From an uncultured Planctomycetia bacterium (GTDB lineage Bacteria; Omnitrophota; Gorgyraeia; Gorgyraeales; Gorgyraeaceae), in NCBI GenBank assembly GCA_964415355.1, contig CAYPYS010000001.1:283819-347818 (forward strand): DNA of 64,000 nt, written 5' to 3'. Position 1 is the stretch's first letter. The number at the start of each line of letters is the position of its first letter. This document shows, in pieces, positions 9,001 to 42,000 of this stretch. Below the pieces are notes generated by a model, which saw nothing but the letters and a program-made list of their open reading frames with translations, made no database searches and was not told where the DNA came from. Made by a program: the position numbers and the translations under genes.

Positions 9001-12000
9001 ATCTAATTTATTCCGAATAGCTGCCGGAATTAGAACTCTATATCTAAAATCTAAACGCTTTTTATAATTACTCATAAATACAGAGCCTATGAAAATAGTA
9101 TTATTTGCTAAAGTATAAGGAGAGACAAGTTTTGCAGTCTTGGCAGCGACCACAAGAGCATTAGACGGAGGGAAAAACCAAAGTAGCAAGAAAAAGAAAA
9201 GGCCTACGCATAATCCTATTATAATTAGAACAATGCCTGCTCTTATGCCCATTCTAGTGATATTACTTGCTGCGCCCCGTGCCTCTCCTACTTTGCGAGG
9301 ATCTAAATGCTTTTCATCGATCAATGCTATTTCTTTTTTATCATAACCTCGTCTCTCTAACCAGTTCTTTACAATATGATGTATGCCTCTATAAATTATA
9401 TATAAGACAAGGCCTGCAATAGTTATTATAAGCAAGTTATATAAACTTAACCCTCTCCCCATACTGTAGGTCAGGTTTAAACCTGACCTACAGTATGGGG
9501 AGAGGGTAAGGGTGAGGGGAAAGAAATATAATAGGATTGAGACGAAGTCATTTTTATTTCTTTTTCTTGGAGGGCTTCTGCCAGCATGAAACTTTCGTTC
9601 TTTAGTTCTTAGGGGTGTTTGTCCATGAAATTCTCTCAATGTATCTGCATCCTTTTCGTTTGCAACTGCGATAGTTACTGAGTCTCCTTGCCTAGATCCA
9701 CCATTATTACCTTGATCACTGCCAAAAGAAGTATCTTTCCATGAATCCCTAAGGCGTGGGTCAGGATTATCATTTCCTCTTTTTCTTCTTCTTTTCTTAA
9801 AGCTTTTCTCTATGGCTGGCAGGAATAATTGTTCTGCAAGGCTTAGGGTCAGCTGGGCTTCCAGGTTATCTATTATCTGAAAGCCACCTTCTAAGTCAGT
9901 GATCCAGCCGCTTATAGTAGTATTAGTATCTGTATTATCTCTAGTTATAACATCATCCATTATAGACTCACTTGTAACTAGGCCTTCATCTAGCCTTAAG
10001 TCAGAGCGGGTTACCTCTATAGCGCCCTGGATATCACTTACAGCATCCTGGATCCTCTTCTTGGGAGAATCTAGGTTTTCTACAGCCCTGGTCCTTTTCC
10101 TTATGCTTTCACCTAACTCATCAGGGTCTTTGGTCTCTGATATCTCTGGTAACTCAGGGGATGAGATATCGATATCTATTTTTTTAGGTTTTCCTCCATT
10201 AGTAGGCTCTACTTTTACAGTTACTGTGCCTCCTAATGCCTTTTCTCTTTCCAGCTGGTTTAGCTCCTCAAGGTCTTTCCAGAGTTCATCTATCACTCTT
10301 TCTTCATGAAGCCTTGCTGCCTCTTTAAGGCTCTTTAAGCGTGCTCTTATATCTTTTTGGACCCTTAAGGCTTTTTGTTCAAGGCTGCGTGCTTCTATGA
10401 TGATCCTTTGGGACCTTTCTAAGAGTAAGTCATCGTTTTTATTGAGGCTCGCTATTATTACCTCCACCATTCTTTCTATGTCTTTAACCATACCTTGAGT
10501 AGCCTTATATTCTTCTTCTAAAGAGGCCTTGGCCTGATCTAATCGTTCTTTATTATGGTCATGTTGAGTTTGTGCTTCTAGCCTTAACTCTTCTACCTGG
10601 AGCAGGTGTCCTTTCTTCTTTTCCTCCACTAGCTCTTCCAAGAGCGTTATTCTCTTTACCAGTTCTTTTAAAGCTCCTTGTGAGCTTTTTTGGGTCTTGT
10701 GTAAGAGCGCGGTAGCTCTTCTTCCTATCTCATTGAGGTTCTCCCTTGCTTCTAAGGCTTTTTGCATGACTTCTTCACTTGGGTTATCTAGATCGATCTC
10801 TTCGAGGGCTAAAGTGGCAGTTTTATGCTCTTTTTGTGAGAGAGTAGCTAACTCTAGAGATTCATTATTGGTCCTTTCTACTAATGTCTCTACGCCTCTA
10901 GTGAGAGAAGCTAATTCATCTTTTACGTGGGAATCTGCTTCAGTTAATATGTCATTCATCTCTAGTAATAAGGTATCTATATCGCTGTAGCTTGTTACTA
11001 CCTCATCTGTCAGGCTAAAGACATTGGCTAACCTTAAGGAGAGTTTTTCTATGGCTTCTTTATAAGTAGGTCCTACATTGCTTAAGGCTTTTTCACTCTC
11101 TCTTCCTATATCCAGTGCAGTTTTTAAGAGTTCGCTGAGCCTTGAGGCTATTTTCTCGATATCTTTCTGGTAACTTGAGTGGTCTATGGGTTCAGTTTGT
11201 ATGATCTCCCTTAGAGAAGAGAGTATGGTAACCAGGTTCTCTTCTGCGCCTACTACAATAGTTGATGCCCTCTCGAGTAATGCGTCATTGATCTTTAATG
11301 AATCTAAGGATATAGAGAAGTTAAGGCTTTTCTCTATCCTGGAGAGCCTTTCATCTACTTTATGGATCAGTCTTGTCAGTTCATTTGATAGGTTCTCTAG
11401 CTCTATCTCCCTAGCTTCTAATTCTCCCTCTCTTTGTAGCCTAAGGCTTCTTATCTTTATGCTTAATTCATTTATTTCTCTTATTATATCAGTCAAGGCC
11501 TCTTGTTTTTCTTTTAGGCTTGATACCCAGTTTTGTATCTTCCCTAAAGTCTCTTCTGTCTCTTGATTCATGTTCTCTGTCTCTAGTTGAGCTTTTTCAA
11601 GGAGCGTCTCGACCTCTCTTATGATCGATAGGATCTCTATTTCTATTTCATCTAATTCTTTGGTTACGCTTGTTATATAACTCTCCAGTTCTAATGATGA
11701 CTCTTCTATTTTCTGGGAGTCTTTATTTAAGGAGCGGGTGAGGGTACGCAGTTTTTCAGCATCTATCCCTTTACTCATTATCTCTATCATGTTTTGGTGA
11801 GACTCTTCTATGGCTTCTTTTTTTTCTTTTAGTTTTTTTCTATATTCAGAGACTTGCATTAAAGTTATGATGAATCTAAATAGGTTGGCAAGGTGTCTTG
11901 ATAAGAAGCTTGAAAGAGCTTTTAGCATACTAGCTAGAGTCCTGGTGAAAGTTCTTTCGCTTTTTATTACACTCTTACTAAATAAAACAGGTAGTTCAGT

Positions 12001-15000
12001 GAGAAGAGAAGAAAGAGTCATGAATAAGTACCAGACTTTTAGCATAGCTGGAGTTATGCCCTTTGTATTTACTAACACTGCTGTTAGAGTAAAAAAGATG
12101 ACTAGATTTACAGTCATGTGATAGGCTTTATCTCGCTTGTTCTCTATATCAGGGTTTAAGAAGAAGCTATATATAAAAGGTATCCTTGAAAGAAGTATCC
12201 AGGCTGTTATGAGTGAAAGCGCGAATAAGCCTGCGATAGCTCCTTCTAATCCTCCGAATGTTATGTAGCCTAGGTATGCAGAACCAGATACTGAGCCAAG
12301 GAATGTGGTTATAGCTCCTAATACCTTTGCTATAGTGGGTATCCTTCTACGCAGGAGGTGCCAATTAATGCTATAGTCTCTACTTGAGTCTTCACTAAAG
12401 GCTTCTTGTGTATTAAATAACTCTTTTAGGTGATTTTGTAACTTTTTTGCCTCTTCTAATATCTCAGGTGCTAATTCACCTCGTCTTTTGTGCTTATATA
12501 GCTCTAGTAAGGCTTTGAGCTTACTATCTATTAGAGATATCCTCTCTCCCTCCTCTTTATTTGCAGTCTCAGATGCTTTTTCTAAGAGATTATTTAATGC
12601 ACCTATACTGCGTGTTAGGTCTATACCTTTAGGAGACGAAAGGCCTTCTTTTATGAGGCTAAGGAGCTTTTTTGCCTCAGAGATATACTTTTCTGCTTCA
12701 GAGGTGGTTTTGTCTGAGGCCTGGGTAGTATCTGGCTGGGATTGGGTATTTTTTACAGGCTGAGCAGCTTCTCTTTCTTCGGCTATGTCATTCTGAGCTT
12801 CAAGAGGAAGTGCTTGAGGCTCTGCACTCTCTCTTTTGGGGAGATGGATGGGTGAGGGGCTGGTTTTTCTCCTTACCTTCCACATGCGGATCTCGATGAA
12901 GCCTCTGAGCTCTTCTAAGAGTTCTTTTGCTTGAGGCTCATCTAGCTTTCTTAGCTTTTCTAGTAAAGCTTCTCTCTCAGATTCATCTGCTACTTGGTGG
13001 TAATATAGGGCGAGCATGGCTTTCATATCGATATATCTGGAATCTATATCATCTAACAATGTCTGTATAATATTGACTTTTTCTTTTCGCTTAGATAATT
13101 TTGATATCTCAAGAAGCTTCTCTGTCGTGTTGCTAAAAATAGATTCTGGTGTTCCGCGTAGAAAACGGGAATCCTCTGACCACAGGACTATATTGCGTTT
13201 AAACTTTGAAACAACAAGTACAATATCAACTGCTATATCAAGAACCTTGTTTAGATTGCCGGGATCATTCCAACTTGTGAGTAACTTGCTGCGCATGGCA
13301 AACTCATCATATCTCAGATGAAAACAAGCTATGCTCATTGTAACCGGGTCTTCTTCGCATACAAAATTACTGAAATCTGCCACACTTGGCTTCTTAACGT
13401 GAGTTTGTCTGATGCGATCACGCATCTCATTTGCCAGTTTTACAGCTTCTCTATCAAATTCATCTGCATTGTCAGGCGCATTAATGTCCTCTTCCAAAAG
13501 CCTGCTGAAAACTAACGGGAGCGTCCTTCTTGCCAGCTCCAGCGCGCCGCGTATCTCAGCGCGCATGCGAGAATCTTCCGGATCCACTGCAATAGCAATG
13601 GTGACATTGTCGCACGGATATGCAAGCAGCCACAAGACAACTTGCTCTTCGTTAACCCCTATCCTAGCAATTGTCTCTGAAAAAATATCGCGGATAACAC
13701 TTAATATTATCCTGTCATCATTGAGCAACTTGTTAAAACGCCCCATCATCCTATCCACGTCAACATCAACAAAAATAATGTCCTGCTCGTTATCTATCCC
13801 GTCTTGTAATAATTTTGTTAATGCAACCCGGCCATACCTTAACTCGTCTTTTTGCTCTTCTTCTATTACCGTAATCTTTTTAGCAGCTACACCTGTGGGC
13901 AGTGCTAGGTTGAAGCTAGAATCCATATCAACTATCGGTTCCTCCGCGACCTCTATCATCACCTCTTCACCCTGATTCCTGGTTTCGTATTCAGCAGCTG
14001 CCTGCTCAGCCATTGCGAGGATTTTTTCGCGCTGCGCCGCAGGTACAACAAGCCGCAATGGACGAATAGTCAAATCTTCAACTATTCTTGTCTCAGGCAC
14101 AGTCTTTTCTAATACAGGTACATGATCGACATCCTGCGCTTTTTGATAGACCAGCCACACTGTCCTGTCGCCTGATATTTTATCTTTATATTGTAAAATA
14201 TCTTCGTCTCCTATGGCGCTACTCATTGTTCGAACCGTCTGCTCTCTTTCGTCTGCATTATAACTAACATCTCCTCCTTTTCCGTAACCAACAACTAGCG
14301 TACCGCCAGGCTTTAATATCTCGGCTGCTTTCTCAATAATCTTTATTTTCTTATTATGATCTACAAGACCGGAAGACAGCACTTTTCGCATAAGAACAGC
14401 ATCGACATCAGTAAGATCTGAATCAAGAAAATCGCCTTTTATGGCCACATTGGGGCAAAATTCCGGCACATAATTTTTTAAGAGTTCGGTCTCACTAACT
14501 CCTGGTTCATAAACCGTGACATTCGCGCCTTTTAGATCCGCAAGGAAAATAAATATCATGTCATAACCCGCTCCGACTTCTACAATATCCATCCCAGGCT
14601 TTACATCTAACTTATCAATAGCGCTAAGATAATCAGGGACTATATCAGAAAATTGGGCAACAAGGCGAGTTAGTTTACCCACAATATCTTTCGGTAATAT
14701 CGATTCAGCGTCAAAAATATTGATCAGCTCAGTGAAATAATTCTTTACATCTTGCACAAGTGGCTCGCTTAACTCTAAAAATATATCCTGATCTTCAGAC
14801 ATCATAGAAGTAGTCACATGTAGAAATAAAGCCGGAAGGCTCGGGACAAAACCATGAGTATGCGCCCTTGCCATGACATCATAAGATAGCATGCGAGTAG
14901 CATTAACAGAAGAAAGCGACTCAAGCACTTCCTCCTGGCTATTTTCATCCAGCTGCAAGAAGTCATAGACTTCCATAAGCCTGACCATGATCTCCTGAAA

Positions 15001-18000
15001 AACCATAGGCGCGCTAAGTTCAGCTTCTCTCGCGCTCAATAAAGCTCCTCTCTCGATTTTTGCACTTTGTAGGCCTAAAAGAGATATGGGAAAAGCTTGA
15101 ACAGTAATATTGTCATCTCCGCTTACCTTCAAAGTCTCAAGCGCGGCAACGATTTTATCCTCTCCTATCTTAGCACCCTCGCTTTTCCTGCGCGCTCTAT
15201 TTAGCTGCTCCAGGATCACCTTTGCCCGCTCCTCGTCTCCTGTGATTATGTCAAAAAGCCCGTGTTCGTCATAATGGCCAAAGTGATCTACCATCATAAG
15301 AAACCCATACTCCAACGTTCCTGCAGACTTAATATATTTATCTTTATCAGAAGGAAGTAAAAACCCATTAGGGTGAGAATGCGCAAAAAACCATATTAAA
15401 TAATGGCTATTACTCTTTATCATAATGCTAGGAGCTTTATCAGGTTCGCCTTTTGTAATAATCCATACCCCGCAATAGTTACGCAATCCTATTTCAAATG
15501 GCGCATCAATATCACTGATATCAGATAACAATTTATCTATAGCGTGAATCTGTTCTGTCATTTCTGACGCAGACATATTCAGTTGCCAATCCAAGACAAA
15601 AGAAGTTCCTGCTAAAATATTTTCATTAAGAATATGTCCTCTTATATCATTAATACTTCTAGCATAACCACTCAATACCTTACGCGCCTTTTCTAAGTGT
15701 CCTTTTCTTGCCAATATCTCAAAGATCGCAAAATCCCTCTGAAGGCGCCTCTGGTATTCTTCTAGTGATGCGCCTGGACCTATTCCCAGTGCCTCTTTTT
15801 CCAATATCCCAGCTATATCAGAATACGGATTAAGCACAAGTGCCTCAACAATATCTTCGACATCTATGCCGCTTATAACAATACCACGCTCAGATCCGCC
15901 TCTGAAAATTCCATGATTACCTCTTGCTAGGTGCCGTACGATCCTTTCCACCTCTTCTCTTTCCTGAGCCAGGATATGTTCTAAAAAATACTTGTATTCG
16001 TTAAGGTAAAGTTCTTTGTAAGAATATCTGTCATCGCTACTCAGCAGATTATCTATTGCCGATAAAATATTGTTTGCCAATTCAAGAATGTTATCCCGAG
16101 CCTCAGACTTTAAAAACCTCTTAAGCGCATCAATTGTCTCTTGAATAATTAACCTATCTGTAGAACTTTCGAGAACTTTAACCAGACTATGAATCCCGTC
16201 TGGATTGTTCGAATAACCAATAGCCCTGATTGCAGAACACTGTATGCGACAGTCTGAAGTTTCTAGGAAAGGCAGCACTCTATTTAAATCAGTCGGTTCT
16301 CCAAAAAACGATATATAACGCAAAGCCATAGAGCGAATATATTTATCATCATGCCCCAGCAAATCGGCCACTAACGGAGTTGCCTCTTTTATCTTAAGAG
16401 ACCTAAGCACAGAAATAGCGACGTATAACTGATCAACTGTAGCTTCTTTTGGTTTCTTTAAAATCTCGATCAAGGCATCTATGATCTCCCTCGACCCAAT
16501 GCTCCCAAGAACATGCGCAGCATCGGATCTTTTGTCTATTTTGCCTTTTAATAGATCTTCTAAGATTTGAGCATGCGTATTAAGTATCTCTAGGCTATTT
16601 TCAATAGGAAGAGTTACGCTTTCGTTTTCAGGGCTTTCAGGCATGTTTATTCCAAGCATATGACGCAATACTTCCTCTATCCTAGGATCATTAAAACAGC
16701 ATGACAGAAGAGCGATGTTTTCCTGTAGCACCCTGGTCTTTTCTCTTTTTTCTTCGGTTTGCCCAGATAACTGCCAGTAAAACTTGATCAAGGGTTCAAC
16801 AAAAGCAGCATGGTTAATATCCATATTCATAAAGGATTCAGCAAAAGCAGCACGGTTAATATTCTCCATACCAGTTAAGATTTTAATAAGTTCTTCTATG
16901 CGCCCTTCATCTTGAGGGACCTTCAGCTGACTGATAAACCAATTAATACTTCTCTCGTCACACTGCCTCGCCAATGCCACAGCTGCCGGCAAGGCAATAT
17001 CAATATCTTTTTTGAGCATTAGATCATGCAAACGTGTGCTGTCTACAACCATTGCTGTCTCTAATCCAGCATCTATTGGCATAAGAATATCATCCGCGAT
17101 TTCCTTTCCGAATACTGCCTTCATTTTCTGAATAAGGGCTGTTGGAAGATCTACTGCGCCGCGATAAAGCCGCGCAATCTCTTCTGCGACATTACCTACT
17201 ACCAGCGCAACGCCTTCTCTTGTGTCATCCTCGCGATTACTGTCATTCCTGTGTTCTTCATTGTCATTCTCGCAAAAGCGGGAATCCACTTTCCTCGCCA
17301 CGATATCGAGGAAAGGCGTAATAGCTCCAGTAACAGGATCCACCCACGCCCCGAGCATACCCATTGCCCAACGGGTGATGAGTCCAATAAAGCCATTGCG
17401 AGAAACCTCAGAAGATGAAACAGTATCTATAACAGTAAAAACTCCTACATTATGTGAAGCATTATCATCTATAATATCATCTTCTCGTTTAATAATAATA
17501 CCTTGTGAAGCCATTTCTTTTGCTATTTCTTCGACAATATCCACTCTTTTGAAATCTTCATCCGGCGTATTTGAAACCATTATAACAAGCTGGCCACCGT
17601 GCTCTAGGATTTCAAACGCCTTTCGGACCATCTTTTTCTGTACATCCAAAGGCACGACTCCATGAGGCCGAATCGGACTTATGATCCTCGACATAACCAC
17701 CATATTATATTTATGTCTAAAGCTGTACTTGGTCACATCAGCGCATTCATATGTAATACCAAGACCCGATCTCTTAGCAATATCACTTTTTAGACTTTTT
17801 ACACTTTCTGGGTCTATTTCAATACCTAAATATTGAGCTCCCATTGAATGAGCTACTATACCAGGAAGACTCACGACTCCAGGACCAAACTCTACTATTT
17901 TATCTCCTGGCACAATACCTAACTTCTTAAATAAACCGAAAATAAAACTCTCTCTAATGACAGGTGATAATTTTAAGTTTTCAGAAGCCGAGGAAGTGCC

Positions 18001-21000: not shown

Positions 21001-24000
21001 CTCATCGCGCGTAACACCAGGAAAGTCTATTTCGAACTGGACCATGTCCTGGCCGTCTATAATTTCATTGCTCGCCCTGATCTCGCCATTCATTTTATGC
21101 AGTGATCTCTTTACAAATGGCAATGCAATGCCATGATTAAATTCAGGCCTTTTGTGGTCCAAGACAAACAACTGTTCCAGGTCTCCTTCTATCTTTCCAG
21201 GATTTAAGATAGTAAGACGACTATAAACTTTACCATCTCCTGGTTCCACTCTAGAAAGCCTTAGAGTTACTTTTCTTGATGTCTCTGGTATTGTAGATTT
21301 ATTGCTAATGATTGCATTAAAACCGTTCGAAACAAGACGTTCGATAATTAGATGGAGTAGCTGCAGATGTCCTGAGATCAAAGAAATATCTTCTCCTATG
21401 ATAATCTCAACAGGAGCGTCTTCCCACTTTGTCTCTAGGGCTATCTCTCCTCTCTCGATCTTGCCTAAGTAATCTATTAAATCTATAATTTCAATGTCAT
21501 GTAAAAAGCTCTCTTTCATAGAAGCTCTTATAACTTGGATATTTACTATCCATCGAGAAATTATATTGCGACATTTCTCGCTTGCTTCTTTCTGTGAGAC
21601 ATCTGATACAATAATAATCTGCAATGCTCTCCTTAGTTCTTCTTCTATATCATCTAGAATTTGTATAAAATCTTCTGCAAGCCCGTTAAGCTCAGCAATA
21701 GTTATTCCATCTCTATCCGACAGATGATCTTTGAATTCTCCTTCTAGTTTTTCCCAGTAAATACGTTGTAAATTTTCAATGCTTCCTGTTAAATCTAAAG
21801 TTGTATAGTCCTGTTGCCATTCTTCAAACTTACTAATTACAAGCTGCGCCAGATTTGCAAAAGCCAAAGGCCCGCCATGCCCCATTATAGCAACAGCTAT
21901 CTCCAGATCATCCCAGTGATAAAGAGTCTCTTCTCCCAATGCTGCCACATCTCTTTGCAACCGAATCAAATACATACCATCCTTGAATTCATATTTAAAG
22001 ACAGGTTCTCTAAGAGCTATTTTTAAATCACGATCTTGTGAAGACCCAAAGTTGCTGATTAGAATACTCCCCTGTCCCTGAAGCGTCTCTGCCATGGCAT
22101 TTAACATAGAACGATATACCGTCTCGGTTTCCATGAGACCTCCTTTATTGATGAGCTTATTGGCATATGTACTGTCAAATAGCCCTGAGGAGATTATCAG
22201 ATCCACGCTTCCTGGCTTGACCAGATCTTCATAACGAGCCAATTCCTGCACCACATCTCCGATAACAGTAATATTAGAGCCTCTGTTGGTTTCCCATCTG
22301 GGATTTACTACTATGACCTGTGAATCAGGAAATCTTTCAGCTACAGTTATAGGGATATTAGCTGTATCCGGCCCTACAAACATTATGGTCTTACCGTTAA
22401 GGTCTGTAATACCTAATACCTTATTTAAATACCTGCTTTCAATAATCGGCCAGGAACTTGATAAACTATCGATAGCAATAGAATGAAGGTTGTCATCTGG
22501 CAGGAATAACGACTTCAAATCTATCTGCTGGCCTTCTTTTACTTCAGCTCTTGACTTCACAAGCTGCAGGCCAGCTGCAAGAGTATAAAGGACATGTTGC
22601 TGTCGCTTCTCTGACTCAGGCACGCCGTTTGTGAGTAGAAAACGTATCTTGCTAAGTATGTTTTCGCCTACTCTCTTTACTAATCCTGGAAGTGCGCCTT
22701 TTTTTGCATCAAAGATAGCTATATCTTTTCCATCTGTTTTCGCAAAAGCGAGCTGTGTTTCTTGAGATAAATCATCTAAATCAACGAGCATCTTAGGTCC
22801 ATGCGCAGTATCGTCTTCGGAGATTGCTTTGTCGCCTGCGGCTCCTCGCAATAACACATCCTCTCCTGCAATGACACCTGGCCACGTCACCTGGATTTGC
22901 GCACAGGGAATACCAGTATCGAAAACTTCTTCCAGAAGCAGAGGTAAAATATCTTCTATTTCGCCTTCTGCCTTATCCACCCGGATACCTTTTGTATCCT
23001 GCAATCCATTTTCAAAAACATGCAGCCAGTATTTTTTTGCCTCGGGTAGATCACCGATCCCTTTTCTGGCAATAAGTCCGACAAACGGAATTAACGCATC
23101 TATCCCAAACTGCCTATACGCATCTCTTGAGTCCTCTATATAAGCAAACAAAGGCTCTATCGACTCTAACGGCAAGTCAATATATCTATTAACGACTTCT
23201 TCAAGCATAGCCTTTTTAAATTGCTGCAGCTGTTCGCCTCTGGTGTTTCCATAGTCCTCTGGTTTGCCTGGAAATAAGGATATTTTTTCTTTTTCTTTGC
23301 GCCATAACATAATACACAAAGGAAACAATATTTCCGTCAATGCATCTTTAAACGAATCTGGCAGGGCTTCTTCGCCGACTATGTCGAATAAGCGACTAAA
23401 CTCTTCGATGCGAGTGCGCGTGTAAGTTATCTTCCCAGGTTTAGCTTTAAGGTCTAATTCAGCCATGTACTCATACCAGCCTCCTGTCCGCGTTTTATCA
23501 ATAGTAAAACCATAATGCTCTAGAACCTGCTGCGCTTCGTGTATTGCAGCTTGTGATTCTATTCTTAAACCAGCGCCGAAAAGCTCTGCCTGGCACCCTT
23601 CAAATTCAGCCCCTATTTCTTTAAGCGCACTAAGAATTTCTATTAAAGAAAGCCTTATATCGTCTGCCTGCCTTGAAAAACCTACCGCAATTGCCCATTC
23701 ATTCGACTGAAAAAAATGCCCCATGTAAACATACTGTCGTCCTTGTATCTCTATTTTTGGGATGCAAAGTCCTAGGCAATTCTTCACTTCATCTGTAGAT
23801 ACTAAACTCAATGTGCCTGAATCATGGGGGACCAATACGCTATACCCGGCATTAACTTCTAATCCACTCGCTGTATGAAGAATAGAAACTATCTCTACTG
23901 ATGCTTGTCCGCGAACTTGAGCATGGGATAATAAGATAAACTCTGTTTCCGGAAGGAGCCTTTGTAGTTCTGAAGTCAATCCAGGATTATTTAAAGTAAC

Positions 24001-27000
24001 TGGAAAAGAATCATCGGATTCATTCTTAAGCTCTATCCAATCTTCTGTATTTGTGGTTAAGAGGAGGTTTGCGATGGTGTGGGCAAGCTCTTGGTCCTGT
24101 GTTTCTCTTAATACTATTTGGTAGATTTCTTGTGCTATAGGAATTACAATGCGGTACCATGCGTTGATAATCTGCTCAAAGACTTCGTATGGATCGTTAT
24201 CTGGAGCCCTTGCGTGAATGGATTCGCCAAAGGCTTCAAGAGCAAGATTAATCTTTGCAATATCTTCATCAGTCACAGGCCTAAGCGGGTCAATAGTCAA
24301 GCTATCAGCAAGTTTTGCTAGCTCCTGTACGTCATTGTAAATCCTTTCTTCGTCATTGCGAGCGAAGCGAAGCAATCTCAAGATCGTCTTCTTGGTTTCG
24401 CGGGAACCGTTTTGCGCCTCGCAATGACGAGCCGCTGCTTCTAGCTCTTCAATCCTAGGGAAACGCACGCCAAGCGCTATATTTGGCTTATCTACCCCTG
24501 CTGCGTCCAGGATATTCTCTACCTGCTCCCTGGCTTTCTTTGCAGAATAACGTAGGTCAATGTATAGTTTCTTTTCGCCTGACGCCTTTTCGCCCAGCAC
24601 CCTGAGCGCCTCTCGAATCGCCGCAACACCTGCAGTGACCTTGCCGCGGATAAGATATACTATTTTCACAGCTCCGGCAATAAAAGGCAAGCTATCAGAA
24701 TCGATCATTGTGACATCTATATCATTAGAATCTTGATGATCTTCCACGGGTATATTAGAATCCGTAACAACTAAAGGTAAATAATTATATTCTCCTCTTT
24801 CGCTCTGAGGCGGAAGTACCTGTCCCATATCAATAGGAGTATATGGCAAAGTGATCATCACCTTCGTGCCAGTTTCGCATTGCAAAGAATCAGAATTACA
24901 AACTTTGGGTTTTGAGAATTTCCCGCCTTTATAAAAAATCTCATGAGCCTTTTTGCCTTTGACACGACTCGCTACCCGAATGCTCCCATCATGCATATCT
25001 ACGACATTCCTGACCTTTCCAAGCCCAAGCCCTGCCCCTGCAAATTCTAGATACTCGGGTGTCTCTGGATCAAAACGATGGAACGACGAGCAAATATAAA
25101 ACATAGACCTCAATCTCTTCTTCGGTATGCCCTTGTTGCTATCCTCTATAGTATAAACATAGCCTTCGTCAGTCTGATAAAAATCCTCATAGATCGTACC
25201 TGTCATAGACCTGTCTATAGGATCAAAATGAGCGTTTGTAACAGCATTTTTGAGTAATTCGTAAACCATCAATTCAATAGTATTAGCAAAAACAACTAAT
25301 TCCACTTCAACCTCTTTTGATGGGATTACCCTTTCTATCCCAGAAATATCTATGCCCTCTACCTCTTGAAAATACGATTTAAGCGTAGCCCAGGGATCAT
25401 CTGCCTCTCTAAAATAATATATATCTTTAAAATCGTGAATATATGGATACCTAATACTTGAAAAATATCCAAATAAGACAGAAAACATGATCTCTACCAA
25501 CCTGCAACTGTCAAAATTGATCTCGTCTAACCTATGTAAGCTGCGTTGTATTTTTTTACTGGTGGCTTTTTCCTCTAAGATATCTATAAAATTCATGTCT
25601 ATAACCGTAGGATAATTAGAAAATATTATGTATTTGGACAGATCTTCGAATAATTCTAAAAAGCAATCTATTGCCTTTTCGTATTTTGATTGTGTATATA
25701 AAATTTGACCTTCTTTAAACGCATCGAGCAATTCAATCTTAAGAGGCCTGATAAGAAGCAAGCGCTGGCCAATGACTTCTTCTTCAAAGATTCCACTTTC
25801 CTCCCCAAGGGAACCAGCGATCTTTTTAAGCAGTCTCATGTATTCATTGAGCAGCATATATAATTTGTTTATAACTACTAAAGTCATTTCAATTACTTCT
25901 TTTGTCTTTTTATCTTTAGGATATATCGCACGAAACATGTCAAAATAATCGTTAACGCGGCGTATCCTGCGGGACCTGGGCGCAAGAACCCTGCCGATAC
26001 TAAAGATCTCTTCGTTAAAAATCTCAGGAATGGTTTCTTCATCCAAACCTAATATATATTCTATCAATGTAATACTTCTAAGAGCCAAAGATGTTTTAGT
26101 ATTTATTAACGGGATCTCACCTTCAGCAGTATGCATAACGGGGATTTGCTTCTTTTTTGATCTACGACTTCTTTTGCTATGGCCTGATAAAGCTAGAAGA
26201 GAATCGTTGTCGAATCTTCGATTGGCAGCGATGATTCTTTCTTCTCTTTGCATGGCATCTTCTAAAATATTGCGAAAATCAGGACTCTTTGTTTTAATGC
26301 TTACATCGATAAGAAAACTTATGGCATCTTTGAAAATCTCTGCCGCGCAATCTTTCTTCTCAATAAAAGAGATCAAAAATACGACGCCTTTTTCATTAAG
26401 CTTCATTCTCCTAAAATTACGTTCGACATAATGGCCTAATGTATCTGGCAACTTTTTTCTTAAAAGAAGTTTGAGGTCTTCGTCTAGCAGCAGATGAATA
26501 TTATATGACAAAATATTACGCCTGATCATTTCATCTGAAAGATAAGGATTCATTTGAGATACTTCGCTAATAATAAGGCCTAATTCCTCAGCGCTTAATG
26601 TTAATTCATCAGCCATATCCCATATCTCTATAATACTCTCTGGTAAAACCACTGAAATATTAGACAAGACTTCTCTTCGAAATTCTGCATCCTTATTAAG
26701 CCTCGCGATAGTATCTTCTCTATGAATTTCTTCTGACAAGGCATGGGCTATATTTATATCGTCTTCATCTAAAACTATGTCTCTGAAATGTTCCACGAAA
26801 ATCTCCATTAATAAGTCTAGCTTTTCTCTCCTTTCCTCTGCTGATAATGGAGCTTTTTTCTTTTTCTTGATACCTGTATTTTGTCTTTCTTCCGGTTCTA
26901 TAATTGCCTCTTTTTCTGCTGCCTCTACCCCAACAACTGCCCGCATGCCGCCGCAAGATTCCTGCACTGCTGCAACAATAGCGTCTGATACATCTGACCT

Positions 27001-33000: not shown

Positions 33001-36000
33001 CCCTATCTTCTCAAAACTTTTCTGATATATCTCGGGAGAAACTTTCTCCTTGTCAGGCTTTGGTGTCTTCACCATCATCACAAACGCGCCGACGGCAAGA
33101 AGTTCTTCTATTATGTCTATTAAAAACATGATCCCTTGTTCTATAAGAGGAAATATATAACGTTCCAGGAAGACATGGTGGAGAATAAAAGTTAATACTG
33201 TAATTGCTAAAGCTAGCCCAGCTCCTTGAGCTCTGAGCCTGCCTGCTTCTGCAATGTCTCCCTGTTCCTTTTTATCTTTAAACTCATCTCCTACAGACAG
33301 AAATTTACTAGTTACCCCAATTAAAACTGCTGTGACTAACAAGATAAATAACACATCCCAGACAATATCAGGAGAAGGCCCTGCCTGGATAAACTGTGGC
33401 AAACTTAACATTTCAACAATGTTGACATTGTCAAAGAAAAGGTTTACTTGGTTGGCAAAATAAAAAAGTGGCAGAGGTATGATACAGCGCATCCTTGATC
33501 TGTCGAATAAAGATGATACAACAAGCGCCAACAAAAGAAGTACGCTTATTAACAATAAAACTTCTTTGGGTAAATTTAGAAAACGATCCGTCGCTAGCTT
33601 GCTTCCGGTTATAATCCTGTCGACGCCCTCTGGTGTTACCGTAGGAATAATTGGTGACGGTGTTACAACCGGCCCTCCAAAAATCCCTTCACCCAGGCCG
33701 CTTATAATAGAAAGAGGCGCGGAGATACATGACATTAATAATTCATCGACAGCTTGCCTGATTCTGGAATCTTGTTTTTTCCTGCGCCTAACATTAGTAA
33801 TACCTACTTCGAGCGCTTTAGCCACATCTGTCGTACTAATCCTCTTTCGCCCATTATTTCTTAGTTTCGATGCTATAACTTCTACATTCCTATGTCCAAA
33901 ATGTCCGTCTGCATTCCTTCCTTGTCCTTTTTTAAATCCTTCTTTGTCTAAAAATTCTGACAAGCGACCCTCTGATAGTCGTATAGCTCTCATAACATCA
34001 TTTGTGCCAACGCCTAATCTGTTAGCTAAATTCCTGCTGGTCTTTCTATGAATTTTCCAATAGGCTCCTGTTGCTGCTTCGCGCACTTCACTCTCACTAA
34101 GATCAACAGCTGCTTTACGCGAACAACTTACAACCATCATAGGGATAACAATGTTAAAGTGTATACTTAAAGATTGCTTCGCACCTATGGCACTCGCAAT
34201 GACAGAATACAATGCAATAAGGGCGATTATAGCTAACAATAGGAGGATAAGCTTTGCTCTGGAGAAAGCTAAGCTTGGTTTCTTTTCTTCCCCTTTATTT
34301 CCATTTAATAAACCATCAAGCAATTCTCGGATTCTGTGATCTTTTTTCGTCTTTACCCATAAAGTCGAACTATTAACTCCGAGTACAGAAGCTACATCTT
34401 TCTGTGTAATATTTGATTTCCGTGTAGCACCTGAGCTTCTCGTTCCTCTTAAATATTTTATAGCAGCCGCGACATTTCTATGTCCATAATGTTTTTTATT
34501 CCCAACTGCCGAACCTGTTACAAAATTCTTTTCTCCTAAAAATTCTACTAAGCCGGGCTTGGACCTCATAATAGCACTCTGAACATCATCTTTGCCAACG
34601 CCTAATCGATTGGCTAAGTTCCTAATATTCTTTTTTCTAAACAACCAATATATACCTCCTGCTGCCTTACGCACTTCACTCTCACTAAGATCAACAGCGA
34701 AGTTTGTACGGTTAGACCCTGCCACAAAGTCCTTGTCTGTTGTATCTACCTTTAATATAAGTTTTCTGCCATCACCTGAAACTCTTGTTGCGTGGTAAGA
34801 AACCGGCTTTTTACCATCAGGAATAAATACAAATATCTCCTTAGCAGCCGTTTCAAGCCTAACATCTGACGCCAAGATAGCCTGTGCCTTCTGTAAATTT
34901 ATTGCGCCTTCAGATATATCATCCAAAACAAGTCCATTCTCTATCAATAGAGTTATTACATCGATCCTTGCCTCATCCATGATCTCAACAAGCACGCTAA
35001 CAAGGCAATTCTCTAGCAGTAAATTGTTAATATGGTACCCAAATGCCTGGTTTGCCTTCAGGTATTCTTCTCTGTCCTTACCTTTATAGTCGACTTCTCT
35101 TCCACCGAGCTTTTCTATAAGCTCCATGAACTCTACTCTTTCTTCAAAGACATATAGGATGCGTTTATTTTTACCCTGGATTATATGCTCTACGGCTGCT
35201 TTTCCTAAGAGACTGCACATGGCCATGTCAACTTCAGAAGTATCAGCTGACCTATAGAGATAATCTATCTTTCCAGCCTCTCTGACTTTTATACCTGCAG
35301 ACTCGCATAGATGGCTTATGATGGCTGTAGTGATACGTCCTGCATCCTTTAGTTTTGGATGTCCAAAGCCGTCGACTTTTCCTTCAGCCTGCTGAAAAGC
35401 CATTCCTGCAACTTCGTCTTTACTAAAGGCGTTTCTCAATACTTCTTCATTATTGGCAAAGCCCTTGTCTATCTTTACGCCTTCCGAAACGATCACTATT
35501 GCGTAGCCGTAATCCTTATAGTAAGCCAAGAGGTCTTTTCCTAGCATTTCAAGGTCAAGGTCTTCTTTTTCAGGTATAAGGGCAAAGGCTACATTGGCTC
35601 TTGCGCCTATAGCCATGGGTGCAAAACCAGCGTTTCTCCCAAATACCTCTATTACCAGGATATAGCCAGTAGAGGAGGCATCTATTATTGCGTTCTCTAC
35701 GCCTAGCGTGCCTGCTTTGACAAAGCTGTCATAGCCATAGGTAGAAGCCCCATGAGGAAGGGCAATGTCATTATCCATGGTCTTGGGAAGGCCTATGATT
35801 AAAAATTCAGGAAGTATCTCTTGTAACCTGTAGGATGCTCCATTAGTGTCGTCTCCTCCGCAGGTTATAAGGCCGTCTAGCTTTAAGACCTCAGTAATAT
35901 TTTTTCCGATAAGTTCGGGTATACCGCCTTCGATGTTCTTCTCGCTAAATGGATTAAACCTGGATGTGCCAATGATAGTAGCTCCTTTTGTGCGGTGCAG

Positions 36001-39000
36001 TTCTGCTTCTTCCAGCGTAATAGGAGCTGCTTTTCCTAAAAGTTCCTCATCTGCCAGGCCTTTCCAGCCGTTCCTTATTCCGATTATTTCTATGTTGCCT
36101 TCATCATGTGCTCTTTTTACAGCTGAATATATGACCTCATTGTGGCCTGAGGCAGGTCCGCCTCCTGTGAGGATACCGATCCTTTTTGTTGGTGAGACTG
36201 TGCCGGCAAATAGAGCCACCCCTATTCCGTAAGTATACATTTCAACATTGTTAGATTGTGAAGTTAAGAGTTCTAAGGGAATAGATATGAATGCATCATT
36301 GAATGTGGATAAAAGAGCAGTGACAAGAATTGCTATGCAGAGCAGAATAAGGACTGTCCAACGTGGCGAACCTCGCGGAGATTTATTGTTTCTCCAACCC
36401 TTTGATCCAAAAAGACCGAGGAACATAAATGCGTATGCGAGAGATTGCTTCACACCTGCGGTATTCGCAATGACGTCGTGTTTATACATCGCGATCAGGG
36501 ACACGCTATCGAACAAATTAGCAAACGGTACAAGAAACTCAAGAAGCTCTGGATATATATCTATCGCGATCGGTAATGCATAAGAAGTGGCTCCCCACAT
36601 GGTCCACGCAGACTGAACTGACATTGCGATGAGGCCAAAGATCGACGTTTGTCCAGCAAAGCCTTGGCGTAAAATAATGCTGCAAATTAATAATCCATAC
36701 AAGATCGCAAATATAATAATAAAACTAATCGGATTAGCAATTAATCTAAGGGATATCCTATTGAAAATCGTGTCGATAATAGGCTGTTTCTTATCGGCAG
36801 ATCTATTTTCTAAGCTGTCTTTAACTTTTCTTAGTATCTCAATTGAATCGCACATAGACTCTGTAAGAATTATACACCGAGGTGGCGCATCCATATCAAA
36901 GATATATCTCGTCACGGTCTCCAATCTTCTAAGATCTTCTATATCTAGCTCCTTCCCTAAAGCCCTGAACTCTACACCTTTTAAAGCGGTGTCTCCTAAC
37001 ATAGTTCTTATATTAACTAGAGTATCCTCTGCGCACTCTGCCTCTCCTGCAAGAAGAACAACGGGAATATTGCCTCTGTCTTTGCCTAGTTTTAGCAAGG
37101 CTTCACTAAAACGAGAAGGATATTCAATAACGTCTTTATCTGTGAATAGAACTGGAGTTTCTTTCAAAGTAGAAAGATTCACTGAGTAACTTCTAAATAA
37201 CATTAAAAAATCTTTGGTAAGTGCCATAGGATCTTCTATCATCTCTCTGCAAGCTGGGTATAGCATTAATAAATCTTCAGTAAAATCTCCTGGCCTAGCA
37301 GCTATCCACTTATCTAATTTATCCAATGTTACCCACTTCACAGCATGCACTTCTTCGTTTGGATAGATCTTCCCGTCAAATCTAGCAAAGGCAATATGCA
37401 TTGGCACATATTCACTCTTAAAACCAGAACCGTCTTTCTTTAAACGTTGCGAGATAAAACTCATTGGTGTACCAAAAATTCTAAAATCTACATCGCTATC
37501 CCTAACCTTTCTCTCATTTCGTAATTCTTCTATAAATTCCCTGGGTACTGTTACTTCAAGAGATTCTCCGCTTATAGAATGACCTGCAAAAGATATATCC
37601 CAAAGACTAGGATTATCCTTAGTTGAAGCGCGTTGCTGAAGAAGTACCTGTCCTTTTGAATTTGATACAAAACATTTCATATGCTTGTTTAATAGACCCA
37701 ACTCATGGATTATTTTTCTGGGAAGACTACCCATGTATATTATTCTCCCATTACCATCCTTTTCAAAATAATCTAGGATCTCGATTCTTTGTCTTAACTC
37801 TAATAGCATCTGAGTAAAGTCAGATTCTTCTTTATGTCTACTTACTATATCTAAAATTATTTCAAGTTCTCCTACTATCTTTCCATTTTCCTGATAATAA
37901 ACAATTAATGCATCTAATATTTTTATAACTATATTAAAATTAATATCATATAGTTCTCTATTATATAAAACATCGATTAGGCGAGCATAGGCTTCCAAAA
38001 ATCTCTCCTGCTTGCCATGCATAAGACCCGTTAGAAGATTCATTGTAGCAGAAGATGCTGAATCAAAATGCTTGGGTATCCCAGTAAGCATAGAACGAGC
38101 TTCTTTTTTTATTAAAGCTGTGACATTAAGATCTCTTTCTGCAGTGCTCCTATCATGGCGCACCACCCAATCAAACAACTCCAAATTCTCTTCTAAGACT
38201 TCAGATCTATCATTAACTATAGTTATCACATCACTTAAATCAGATATACTTGTCAAGTAGTCTACTATAAAATCAGCTCCTTTTAGTAGTCGCTTAGCAA
38301 TCTTTGTTCTGTTGCTCAATCTCTCTCCAAGGGTTTCTTCGAGAGCACCTACAATAGAAGCCTTATCTAAATCTTGAACTCCTTCTGGTGATACAGGCAT
38401 AATAAAAGCTACTCTTGCATGAGGAAAACTCTTCTTTAAAATTTTAACATGTTCTATAGAAGCCATATGAAATAGCAAGATCTTGCCTTCTCTAGTAAGC
38501 TTATCGAGCTCTTTCTTCTCAGATGCATAGTCGTCTCCGTAGATTTCCCATTGTACATCAAACTCCCCTCGATCTTTTTTCGCCTCAAACTCTGCTCTAG
38601 TTACACATTTTTTATCGTCTCCTGGGCCACGATAAGGTCGCGTTGTCCAGCGCGTAGGACATACCACTTCATCTGGATATTGTCCCTCTAAAAAATTCAT
38701 AAGAGTACTTTTGCCTGCGCCAGAAGAACCTGCCACAGCAATAACAGTCTGCCTTGTCACTTCTTGACCTATATCATTATATTTTTTGTAGATTTGATGT
38801 AATAAGAAAAGACCTATGCCTATTATAGCTAACATAATCTCGTAACTTAACACTTTAATGTTGTTGAAATGTAAAATTAGGGTGAGGACAGCGCCTATCC
38901 ATGCAAAGATAAAACCTACAAAGATCAGAGAGCCCTCTTTGTCGCTTCCTATCTGTATTTTTAGTATCTCTTTTTCTGATAACTCAGGATTCTTCTGATG

Positions 39001-42000
39001 CAGGAGTTCATGTTCAAACACTATATTCTGTGCCCATTTAGGGAGATAACCATAGGCGGGATGATATTGGATAGTATCAGTAGTTTTATCATATGAGGCT
39101 ATTGCAGTACTATAATATGCTATGAATCTCGGAGGGCCTCTTTTCTTTATTGTATCTATTATAAAGGCAAGATATATTGCAAAAAATAACATGAGAAATT
39201 TCACGGCCTTTGCAAACTTAAGGTTAGTAAGGGCTATCCATGCTCCCTGTAAGGCAACCTTAGGAGACATAGTACTCTGTAAATTAGCAGGCAATGTCTC
39301 TGTACGAAGCGCATCTCTCCTTGAAATGCTCAAGGCCAATTTTTCTGCCCTTGATGGCATCTCTTCAAACGTTAAAAGCTCTGATAATATCCAAGCGTCC
39401 CACTCTCCTGGAACAGGCTCTGAAAAACCGAGACGGTTCTTTACATCATCTAATAACCAGCTAAGAAAACGGGTCAATTCTTCCGCGGACATTCCCCTGT
39501 CTTTAAAATCCTTATAAGCCCGTTTAGCGATAGGCAATAATAACTCTAAGGATGTATTTTTATGATGCCGCAGCCATCTCTGGATATCCAAATCGGCTTC
39601 CAAGATGCCATGACTGCGATACCACGTAAACCTCCCACTTGCACGCCAATAGTCCAATCTGCTTCCTACAGGCAGCCCTGTATTAAGCCACTTTTTAGTT
39701 TCGGCGTCATGCTCACCAAGCTCCCAGAGCGACCATTCAATTAGTCTGGCCATTCTTTCTTCGCTCTTGATCTGTGCCTTTTTACGGGCAATCAAAAGAT
39801 CTTCTAAGGAGATCTTTTCTCCTATCAGCTCCTCGATGCTGACATAGGGCTTTTCCATTACAATCACGCCAGCCCCTGGCTGATGGAACCATCGTCTATC
39901 AGACCAGCGATAAGAAGCGTCAAAAAAGAGAAATCCTTCCCGTTGCAAAGAATCCACCCATTGCTCGATTGCCTTGAATTCAAACGGAAACGGCATAGGG
40001 CATTCATTGACAATAATATTGACATACCAATCACTGAAAGCCAAAAAGAGGTTTTTCTGCTCACGATTTAAAGCTAGGAATAAGTCACGCAACTCTGGAA
40101 ATTCAGGGTCGCTACCCACAGTAATAAGCATGGAGTAGCTGTCTTCGAATAGCATTAATAGTCCCCCTTGTTTTAAAATGCGCTTATTTTCCTCTACAAA
40201 GGAACTGAAAAATCTTTCTTCTACATGATGCATAACAGTATGTTGTATTACTACATGGACTTCTCCATCTCTAAAAGGCAAGCTAGTAGGATCAGTCTGA
40301 TGACAAAAACTTACTCTCTCGCCTTGGTATGGTTCATTAACTCCCATGTCACAGCCTATAACCCTAAGCCACGGCCTGCCTCTGACCATCTCCCTTCCAA
40401 GAAGATTCTTGCCCGCCCCTATATCAGCAACAACTACATCCTCGCCTGTATGGTCGTAAAGCGCATCGATATATGGCATGACTAACTCTAAAGTAGGTTC
40501 GAACTTATTCCCGCCCTGGCGATAGAGTCTGTAGGCTTCTTGAAATTTAACATCTGTCTTAAAGCGAATGACTTTATCATAAAGAACCTCTTGCGCTTTT
40601 ACAGGATCATTTGCATGTTCTCCCAAAGTATCTATGATCCTCTCGGCTAGGTCAGAGGGAAGTTTGTATCGCGAATATCTAAGTGTTAGTAGCCCTAATA
40701 TTACTTCTCTTACTTCCAAATCCTCTAAGGCTATAAGAGGATTCCAAGCTAATGGAAATTGATTTTCTTTAATAGCGACTGCACCTAAAGCTTTAGTTAA
40801 TAGATTCTTCCACGGTGGACTGCGCGGAGAATCACTGTTTCGCGAGTCTTGTGATCCGAAAAGGCCTAAGAGCATAAGAACAGGGCCTATAAGAGATTGC
40901 TTAACCTCTGTGGCGGTCGCGATGGAGGCAGTAGAGGCAAATATACCTGATCTCCCCAACATCTGAATAAGGTATATTAACATTAACGAAATAGAAAATG
41001 GATTAACGATCCACATCATAAAACCATCCCGGAACCTTGGATATCTCCAGGTAATCCTGCCTTCTGTAATAGGACGTCCCATAGGAGAAGTCGCTGTTAT
41101 TTCTCCCTCTACAGAGCCTTCTCGTATGTCTAAATGGCATATCCTGATCACTGTTAGGAAATGAATTAACGCGACAATAGAAAATATCCAATAACTGGCT
41201 GTAAGAAATGTAAGATCAAGGACATCAAAGGAAGTGACAAAAATCCACGCAGCAACACCTAATATAACAAATATACCTGTTGTCCATTGCATCCATCTGC
41301 GATATTCTCTTTGAGCTCTAATAGCTGTATTCTGATAACCGCGTTCTGCAACCTCAGGTCCCATATTGGAAAAAGGATCATCTGAGTCAGGTTGTTCTAT
41401 AATTTCTGGCATAGGCCTGAAGAAATCAAGCCACCACGCAGTCCCAATACCAATGCCAATACAATAAGCTATAAAAAAAGCCTTAAGCCCTGCATGTCCT
41501 ATGTTCAATAGTGCATTTTGATTTATAGAGTACAAGACCCATGAAACCCATGCCCCTATGAATAGATACCATAACAGCCTATAGAAATTCAGCATTCGCC
41601 TGTTTATAGAGTCATCATCGGAAACCGTGCCTATAAAGATAAGGAAAGAACTGGAGAGTACAGAAAAGGAAGACATGTCAGAGACTATTCCTGGCGGGGC
41701 ACGGCCGGCAAATATGCTTCGAGCAAAGTCGAGGAAGTGCCGAGATGTCCCGGCGAGGCCAATCTTTGTGCCATCAAATACCAAAGGCAGCCAGTCTACA
41801 TTTTCCTGGAGCGTCATAAAAAACCAGCCAATGCCAAAGGCAGCTACTATGATAACAATCAATCCGATTGCAATAGCCCATAGGCTAAATTCTCTATTTT
41901 TTGCTTTAGATAGATCAACATCTCTTGCAACATGTTCGTTAGCAGCTCTACGCTCTCCTGTCTGAGCCTTCTTTGTCACGCTCCTAGCCCACATAGCTAA

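Follow-up and report, generated by a model that had tools for sequence, protein, structure and literature searches.

Repetitive extragenic palindromes (REPs) with a CGTC tag consist of an unpaired CGTC, TGTC, or CCTC head, a stem that starts with two A-T pairs, and a CCA tail (Di Nocera, De Gregorio & Rocco 2013, BMC Genomics 14:522, PMC3733652). Inverted dimers predominate. The repeats prefer alpha-proteobacteria, with other phyla represented, lie mostly downstream of genes, and have no associated transposase; occasional intragenic copies encode 20–30 amino acids (PMC3733652). Family CGTC-1 of Rickettsia conorii corresponds to the Rickettsia palindromic element (RPE) RPE-6 and CGTC-4 to RPE-4, and the supplement to the same study lists the intragenic peptides VIPAKAGI, SFPRKRES, DSRFRGND, and DSRFCRND for CGTC-1 and VIAGLDPAI...DARVKPAHD for CGTC-3 (PMC3733652). 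We analyzed a 64,000-nt stretch of contig CAYPYS010000001.1 (positions 283,819–347,818; the window, meaning this whole stretch) in which a 27-mer occurs twice, in opposite orientations, inside one giant open reading frame (ORF). We conclude, with a probability of roughly 0.85, that the two 27-mers are consensus arms of a CGTC-tagged REP family found in many phyla, embedded in the giant ORF. A first reading of the sequence, here called the original prediction, had recognized a dispersed REP-like palindromic family within coding sequence, and the CGTC REP features and six window hits described below bear this out. It had also proposed that the pair drives a programmed inversion, a proposal that did not survive.

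The 27-mer pair and related units in the window

The 27-mer GAGATTGCTTCGCTTCGCTCGCAATGA has two exact occurrences, at 45957-45983 (+) and 24353-24379 (-), and was matched in none of 100 dinucleotide-preserving shuffles. The original prediction had correctly described an exact inverted pair, with the second copy placed one nucleotide off at 24354-24380. Its 12-bp inverted repeat around that copy is also real (arm CGTCATTGCGAG at 24351-24362 (+), inverted copy at 24418-24429) and extends to a 13-bp stem (24350-24362/24418-24430), with a 55-nt spacer between the 12-bp arms in place of the 44-nt loop reported. RNA folding supported the hairpin (-33.3 kcal/mol, z = -2.7 for the coding-strand RNA), and the site also folds as DNA (-20.7 kcal/mol, z = -2.3). 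No T-run follows it, and no intrinsic-terminator-like site was found there. Similarity beyond the 27-mer is weak; arms extended to 39 nt are 87% complementary, with all five mismatches in the 12 nt added. The hairpin has a GC content of 54% against a mean of 41% (SD 7%), only a modest compositional signal. Its codon usage falls in the lowest 0.5% of the 27-codon windows of the ORF, which is expected because the element, not the gene, sets the composition. On the coding strand the hairpin reads RHCEAQNGSRETKKTILRLLRFARNDE (residues 13191-13217) and the 45.96-kb site reads TNVIPVKAGIYSIIASEAKQSLAGLP (residues 5994-6019), which contain the peptides ...ILRLLRFARND... and ...IIASEAKQSL... noted at the outset.

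Further copies were located with a covariance model built solely from copies of other genomes. The model gave six hits in the window at E ≤ 1e-5, in both orientations. Two are canonical units that hold the 27-mers. The unit at 24351-24379 (+) has a CGTC head, an ATTGC/GCAAT stem, a GCGAAGC core, and a CTC tail (37.9 bits, E = 7e-8); it is antisense to the ORF and is translated LLRFARND. The unit at 45957-45985 (-) lies in ORF sense, has a CATC head, and is translated IIASEAKQS (29.7 bits, E = 1e-5). Three sense units have a longer interior: 43176-43210 (-) (50.1 bits, E = 4e-11; inner stem GCACC/GGTGT; translated VIASTAGVKQS), 36441-36475 (-) (50.7 bits, E = 3e-11; VIANTAGVKQS), and 34170-34204 (-) (48.9 bits, E = 8e-11; VIASAIGAKQS). 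The last hit, at 22820-22856 (-), is a sense unit in another reading frame (33.5 bits, E = 1e-6; LLRGAAGDKAI). Related copies near 36.44 and 43.18 kb had already been noticed; those at 34.17 and 22.82 kb are additional.

The 24.35-kb unit is one half of a complete inverted REP dimer (24350-24430, both strands) with a 13-bp outer stem and a 79-nt core that encodes RHCEAQNGSRETKKTILRLLRFARND. Its partner arm CGTCATTGCGAGGCGCAAAACGGTTCCCGCGAAACC (24395-24429 (-)), read directly from the sequence and missed by the covariance model, keeps an intact head, has lost the 3' GCAATC, and resembles the right arms of two loci from other genomes (L058 and L040). Two more decayed copies, also missed by the model, sit in the linker module described below. 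The copy at 40894-40926 (-) is recognized by its position and the intact tail AAGCAATCT only, is about 73% identical (by eye) to the 43.18-kb unit, and encodes SIATATEVKQS; the copy VVASSSTALGINFAKQS at 44790-44830 (-) has head GTTGTTGCGAGT and tail AAGCAATCT. The window also holds two classical units. One, at 45991-46014 (-), lies directly upstream, in coding direction, of the unit at 45957-45985. It has a TGTC head, an 8-bp stem (ATTCCCGT/GCGGGAAT), and a GAAA loop, differs from GTCATTCCCGCGAAAGCGGGAATC at one position, folds at -11.3 kcal/mol (z = -3.9), and is translated VIPVKAGI. The other, at 17263-17286 (+), is a degenerate antisense CGTC-1 REP with two mismatches to the CGTC-1 consensus, translated DSRFCEND. 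The window thus contains six significant copies, two decayed copies, and two CGTC-1 units, laid out as one antisense dimer (24.35 kb), five single sense units, the two decayed copies, and the CGTC-1 pair. The elements are read in three frames and both orientations, and units of the 27-mer family are translated as VIAS..KQS (six module copies), LLRGAAGDKAI (22.82 kb), or RHCE...LLRFARND (antisense dimer).

Fragments were seen beside several of these units. A head-and-tail remnant, CGTCATTGTAAATCC, is found at 24330-24345, some 5 nt away from the dimer and to its 3' side when read in coding sense, and a head remnant, GTCATTGC, lies 12 nt upstream of the 22.82-kb unit (22868-22875); both could be traces of earlier copies or mark a preferred target. 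Three occurrences of the motif xGxATGAC, spaced by 21 nt, follow the degenerate CGTC-1 unit in the coding direction (17173-17262): GAGAATGAC, AGGAATGAC, and GAGGATGAC. They encode ENDNEEHRNDSNREDD and are possibly decayed REP halves. A 128-nt direct repeat with 77% identity (33983-34110/34571-34698, 588 nt apart) adjoins the 34.17-kb unit.

All elements lie, as the original prediction stated for the 27-mer pair, in a single ORF (1-64000 (-)). On the minus strand, at offset 1 of the reverse complement, this frame is stop-free over 63,999 nt, or 21,333 codons, and open at both ends; the remaining five frames contain 530–1,932 stops. The inventory covers the 64-kb window only, all of which is coding. 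The predicted product is a multi-enzyme, membrane-rich giant protein with 68 hydrophobic segments, densest at residues 5,000–7,700. Pfam matches include a bacterial PH domain, methyltransferases, guanylate kinase, NUDIX, phosphofructokinase (PFK), GNAT, two protein kinases, HATPase_c, HEAT, HD_4, and RelA_SpoT. The enzymes along the chain are unrelated, and residues 1–5,000 gave no Pfam match. The top homologues of the PFK domain (50–55% identity) are partial multi-domain proteins named Candidatus Omnitrophica, Omnitrophota, or Auribacterota. Multi-enzyme giant proteins have been reported for Omnitrophota (bioRxiv 10.1101/2023.11.21.568195; 10.64898/2026.06.07.730766), and the ORF of the window resembles these giant genes; neither of the two papers mentions palindromes or inversions. 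No REP copy overlaps a Pfam domain in the window. The REPs at residues 9175-9187 and 9932-9944 flank the PFK domain (residues 9273-9606): the 36441-36475 unit lies about 85 residues upstream of it and the 34170-34204 unit downstream, and similarity to the Omnitrophota PFK relatives ends short of both.

Distribution and anatomy of the repeat family

The exact 26-mer GTCATTGCGAGCGAAGCGAAGCAATC, the core of the 27-mer, was scanned over one genome per bacterial and archaeal species. This search found it in at least 120 genome stretches. Judged by the record titles of the matches listed, most come from alpha-proteobacteria, including Bradyrhizobium and sphingomonads. Further hosts among these matches are Legionellales, Coxiellaceae, Rickettsiales, delta-proteobacterial lineages, Planctomycetota, Chloroflexota, Bacteroidota (Bacteroidales), Ignavibacteria, a cyanobacterium (Calothrix), Thermoanaerobaculia, Spirochaetaceae, Calditrichaeota, Chitinispirillales, an Eubacteriales metagenome-assembled genome (MAG), and an Omnitrophota MAG. 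The matches listed contain 137 copies. Conservation ends sharply at cC-GTCATTGC...GCAATC-CAg in the 133 with enough flanking sequence, and an inverted partner arm lies within 160 nt of 89 of the 137. The resulting dimers have a median length of 84 nt and a lower quartile of 79 nt, which the 79 nt of the window dimer (24351-24429) fits.

In the low-GC loci that were checked, copies lie outside long ORFs. A long-open-frame test of copies in high-GC genomes was set aside because spurious frames are long there, and the low-GC loci were used instead. The repeat occurs in at least 40 places on a Novosphingobium megaplasmid, where the best match has no annotated feature beneath it. The long-interior variant is itself dispersed, with a degenerate pattern matching 44 metagenome loci that are mostly low in GC and mostly outside long ORFs. 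Conservation at the nucleotide level rather than the protein level, which the original prediction had argued for, is evident from these copies outside long ORFs and from the antisense and other-frame readings within the giant ORF. In an Anaerolineae MAG (L084, ~1826-2030), at least six exact 26-mers follow one another in tandem, all pointing the same way and repeating every 34–37 nt, which is unusual for a family mostly of inverted dimers. Four places in a Helicobacter canis prophage record (BK070053.1/BK070055.1, ~12005-12033) match the REP arm; phage carriage is a conceivable route for spread of the family between phyla.

The anatomy of the unit was derived from 320 arms with 114 different interiors. 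Each unit has an unpaired CGTC/TGTC head, a 5-bp outer stem (ATTGC/GCAAT), an internal loop, a variable inner hairpin, and a short tail. The internal loop is 5' GA(G) and 3' GAA in 75 of the 114 interiors, and the inner stem has 2–7 bp with loops mostly of 3 nt. No form is shorter than the canonical 26-mer, in which the mini-hairpin GCGAAGC serves as the inner hairpin. In a set of 42 distinct 35-nt units, all five pairs of the inner stem change on both sides. This inner helix covaries: double-change cells number 39, whereas shuffles give 15.9 and none of 500 attains the observed value, and the covariation score is 0.221 against 0.072. Pairing is lost when the partners are slid. Because the outer stem was part of the search pattern, its invariance in the 42-unit set is by construction.

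Several features that define CGTC-tagged REPs recur here. The head is CGTC at 24351-24354 and at 36.44 kb, TGTC at 43.2, 34.2, and 22.8 kb, and CATC at 45.96 kb; the consensus base before GTC is C in the 137 genome copies among the matches listed. The first pairs are A-T in every copy (ATTGC/GCAAT) and in the CGTC-1 unit (ATTCCCGT/GCGGGAAT). After GCAAT the family consensus is CCAg, with CTC or CTT in low-GC variants and window copies. Inverted dimers, usually of about 80–90 nt and folding as a single long hairpin, are the common arrangement (the 89 partnered copies above), and the dimer of the window folds. Rfam, searched over the whole window at the gathering threshold, returned no family, hits near 24.35 kb were at chance level, and a full-text literature search for the sequence or the REP-encoded peptides returned unrelated primers and words only.

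Proposed insertion, linker duplication, and competing explanations

A linker module is repeated six times between 33.9 and 46.0 kb (residues 6012, 6401, 6939, 7700, 9184, and 9941). It follows the pattern ...VIAS-x-KQSL-x-FMFLGLFGSKGWRNNKSPRSPP... with hydrophobic segments on both sides, and four to six of the sense copies begin such a module. A profile of the module found no homologues among 5.8 billion proteins. The sense copies in modules, at least four, appear to have multiplied largely by internal duplication of the linker module. Module copies differ in their interiors, which are short and canonical at 45.96 kb and long elsewhere. Point mutation cannot yield such a change, which suggests either that one REP replaced or converted another or that insertion recurred at a single module position.

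The history we propose is that the elements became part of the giant reading frame as insertions, that at least four sense copies would then have been multiplied along with the linker module, and that the copies are best viewed as selfish or neutral passengers, like the palindromic elements in Rickettsia genes. The canonical arm has stops in only one of its six frames, so survival in frame is unsurprising, and inter-domain membrane linkers may tolerate the 9–27 extra residues. Indirect support for insertion of the subfamily comes from another organism. In an ORF of at least 2,226 codons on a low-GC metagenome contig (L159, 3-6680 (-)), members read in the VIA(S/R) frame come immediately behind the DFGD motif in two PKD repeats. 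The match to the Pfam PKD profile there spends 48 residues on 30 positions, and an uninterrupted repeat of that ORF does not have the segment.

Several observations weigh against a CGTC REP family that arrived by insertion and has been carried neutrally. The four published CGTC families have a continuous 8–9-bp stem with a 4–5-nt loop, which the 27-mer family lacks; a continuous stem was found only in the CGTC-1 unit at 45991-46014 (8 bp, GAAA loop). The 79-nt core of the dimer is no multiple of three, which blurs the insertion boundaries, and its partner arm is decayed. A 600-residue region around the dimer had no homologues among 5.8 billion proteins, a 303-residue flank had no match in metagenome contigs, and a search with the PFK region returned homologues of the PFK domain only. 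Because neither an orthologue nor an empty site was found, we infer insertion rather than demonstrate it. The codons AAG CAA TCT are invariant in all six module copies, which share one frame (chance ~5e-7 under the codon usage of the ORF, if the copies are independent). This could reflect nucleotide-level selection and not neutrality, with common descent accounting for part of it. Identical codons are, however, also kept by three of the seven further residues that do not vary among the four well-aligned modules; the excess is therefore not significant (about p = 0.08), and descent accounts for much of the codon invariance. Nucleotide-level selection on AAGCAATCT was accordingly dropped as a candidate; its naive probability is tiny and it is non-significant against the neighboring invariant codons.

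That the REPs are more than passengers, either fusion fossils of intergenic spacers or selected hairpin punctuation of a long transcript, appears unlikely. As fossils, they would have stood in the spacers of neighboring genes and been captured as linker code when the giant ORF formed by read-through gene fusion, leaving a record of giant-gene assembly by serial fusion. The protein is indeed a chain of otherwise free-standing enzymes, every window copy lies between Pfam domains, two copies flank the PFK unit, the family lies outside long ORFs in the low-GC genomes checked, and published CGTC REPs are mostly downstream of genes (PMC3733652). One and the same REP is also found 58 codons after a stop in two metagenome loci (L130, 2434-4326 (+), and L132) and 2,190 codons into the ORF of L159, with identical sequence downstream. 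We nevertheless rate such an origin as rather improbable. At least four sense copies belong to a duplicated linker module and hence do not mark one fusion each, the REPs of L159 are inside PKD domains in what is clearly insertion and not fusion, and no trace of former stop codons, start codons, or ribosome-binding sites was recognized. Where the copies lie is not decisive by itself, since linkers also tolerate insertions. Selection for the hairpins themselves, as pause, processing, or stabilizing signals at the starts of linker modules, is more doubtful still. Besides the AAG CAA TCT codons, GTC ATT GCG is kept in three module copies and ATT GCG in a fourth, while neighboring conserved residues vary synonymously. 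The three long-interior copies (43.18, 36.44, and 34.17 kb) share one two-stem fold in which the inner-stem differences keep pairing, and for Escherichia coli, transcription of REPs and an effect on mRNA stability have been reported (PMC12306157). The compensatory pattern comes from only three sequences, however, and the codon excess shrinks as described above. Two module copies are decayed, z-scores of single hairpins are weak (-1.0 to -1.5), and neither a terminator-like site nor an Rfam family was found.

It is also very improbable that VIAS...KQSL is purely a functional linker peptide whose likeness to the antisense 24.35-kb copy is coincidental. Six copies share one frame, each before the conserved hydrophobic/basic stretch FMFLGLFGSKGWRNNKSPRSPP, but within the ORF the same nucleotides also yield LLRFARND when antisense and LLRGAAGDKAI in a further frame, they lie outside long ORFs in many unrelated genomes, and the module has none of the protein homologues that were sought. 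The programmed inversion put forward in the original prediction, in which the 27-mers serve as recombination sites and flipping of the 21.6 kb between them shuffles domains or phase-varies the protein, has as little to recommend it. The repeats are exact and inverted, and with 27 bp lying close to the minimum length for RecA-dependent recombination in E. coli, a rare accidental inversion of the RecA type is physically possible. Replacing 24380-45956 by its reverse complement places a stop 21 codons past the junction and 421 stops in the frame. Inversion could therefore only truncate the protein, and domain shuffling by this route is excluded. Truncation might in principle act as an off switch, but the 27-mers are no private site. 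Their identity equals the consensus of a multi-phylum repeat and needs no special explanation, and the pair is not special because the window holds at least six significant copies in both orientations. Known switches use a dedicated recombinase and are usually far shorter. The 27-mers are almost certainly not a DNA-flipping switch.

The ORF contains one further structure. A perfect 58-nt palindrome without a spacer lies at 9450-9507 and reads ...FPLTLTLSPYCRSGLNLTYSMGRGLSLY...; as RNA it folds at -58.9 kcal/mol (z = -11.6). On either side stands one arm of a weaker 39-nt inverted pair (9188-9226/9524-9562), and the outer arms of the palindrome, CCCTCTCCCC/GGGGAGAGGG, resemble hairpins nested within REP loops of two loci (L005 and L065). 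Searched as a family in 164 fetched loci, the palindrome had no match.

Comparison with known systems

Reading the repeats as CGTC REPs removes an attractive but wrong interpretation, that of an inversion switch built into a giant gene. It would mean that, like Rickettsia genes, giant multi-enzyme genes of the Omnitrophota type gather REP palindromes in frame. In the linkers of such genes, annotators should expect the REP peptides VIAS..KQS, RHCE..LLRFARND, VIPxKAGI, and DSRFxxND. What is new is an apparently uncatalogued CGTC-type subfamily with an interrupted stem, a covarying inner hairpin, and a 26-nt core that is identical across a wide bacterial range. This uniformity sharpens the question of how CGTC REPs spread and stay uniform without a known transposase.

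Invertons are flipped by site-specific recombinases at private repeats, and intragenic ones are translatable in both orientations. They share with this locus the placement of inverted repeats within one gene. The present locus has a generic REP as its repeat and an interval of 21.6 kb, and its flipped frame carries the 421 stops. In REPIN/RAYT systems, which were reportedly described by Bertels & Rainey in 2011, Nunvar in 2010, and Ton-Hoang in 2012, REP doublets are mobilized by Y1 HUH transposases. Like the present family, they consist of two inverted REPs with a short spacer, form a hairpin of about 80–100 nt, and reach many copies per genome. They differ in having a GTAG head and a cognate RAYT gene with REPs on both sides. 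For CGTC REPs, no dedicated transposase is known (PMC3733652).

The closest relatives are the CGTC repeats. With the superfamily, the 27-mer family shares the head, the A-T-first stem, the short tail, a predominance of inverted dimers with the heads outermost, occurrence in many phyla, and occasional in-frame copies of about 9–30 residues. With CGTC-3 it shares the outer stem and the ends GTCATTGC...GCAATC; CGTC-3 translates as VIAGLDPAI. Unlike the published families, its stem is interrupted (5 bp, a GA/GAA loop, and an inner hairpin of 2–7 bp), and its peptides (RHCE, LLRFARND, and VIASEAKQS) are not in the published list of intragenic peptides (PMC3733652). On these two grounds we file it as an unclassified variant within the CGTC superfamily, outside CGTC-1 to CGTC-4 and apparently uncatalogued. 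Omnitrophota is not among the five phyla given for CGTC repeats (PMC3733652), and the host here is an Omnitrophota-like giant ORF.

The units at 45991-46014 and 17263-17286 are plain CGTC-1 units, because VIPVKAGI and DSRFCEND closely resemble the supplement peptides of PMC3733652. The two peptides are near-identical to the RPE-6 peptides VIPAKAGI (one residue different) and DSRFCRND of R. conorii. Identity with a named RPE is limited to these two units, which have one or two mismatches to GTCATTCCCGCGAAAGCGGGAATC; the 27-mer family is no RPE family. RPEs (RPE-4, RPE-6, and the longer RPE-1) are likewise small in-frame palindromes that add short peptides and leave the ORF intact. The present elements differ from them in host organism and gene, in belonging mostly to the ATTGC-stem subfamily, and in that several appear to have been multiplied by duplication of a host module. 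The repeats are thus of an already known kind, the CGTC-tagged REP, and behave like the palindromic elements of Rickettsia; the host gene is new, as is, possibly, the subfamily.

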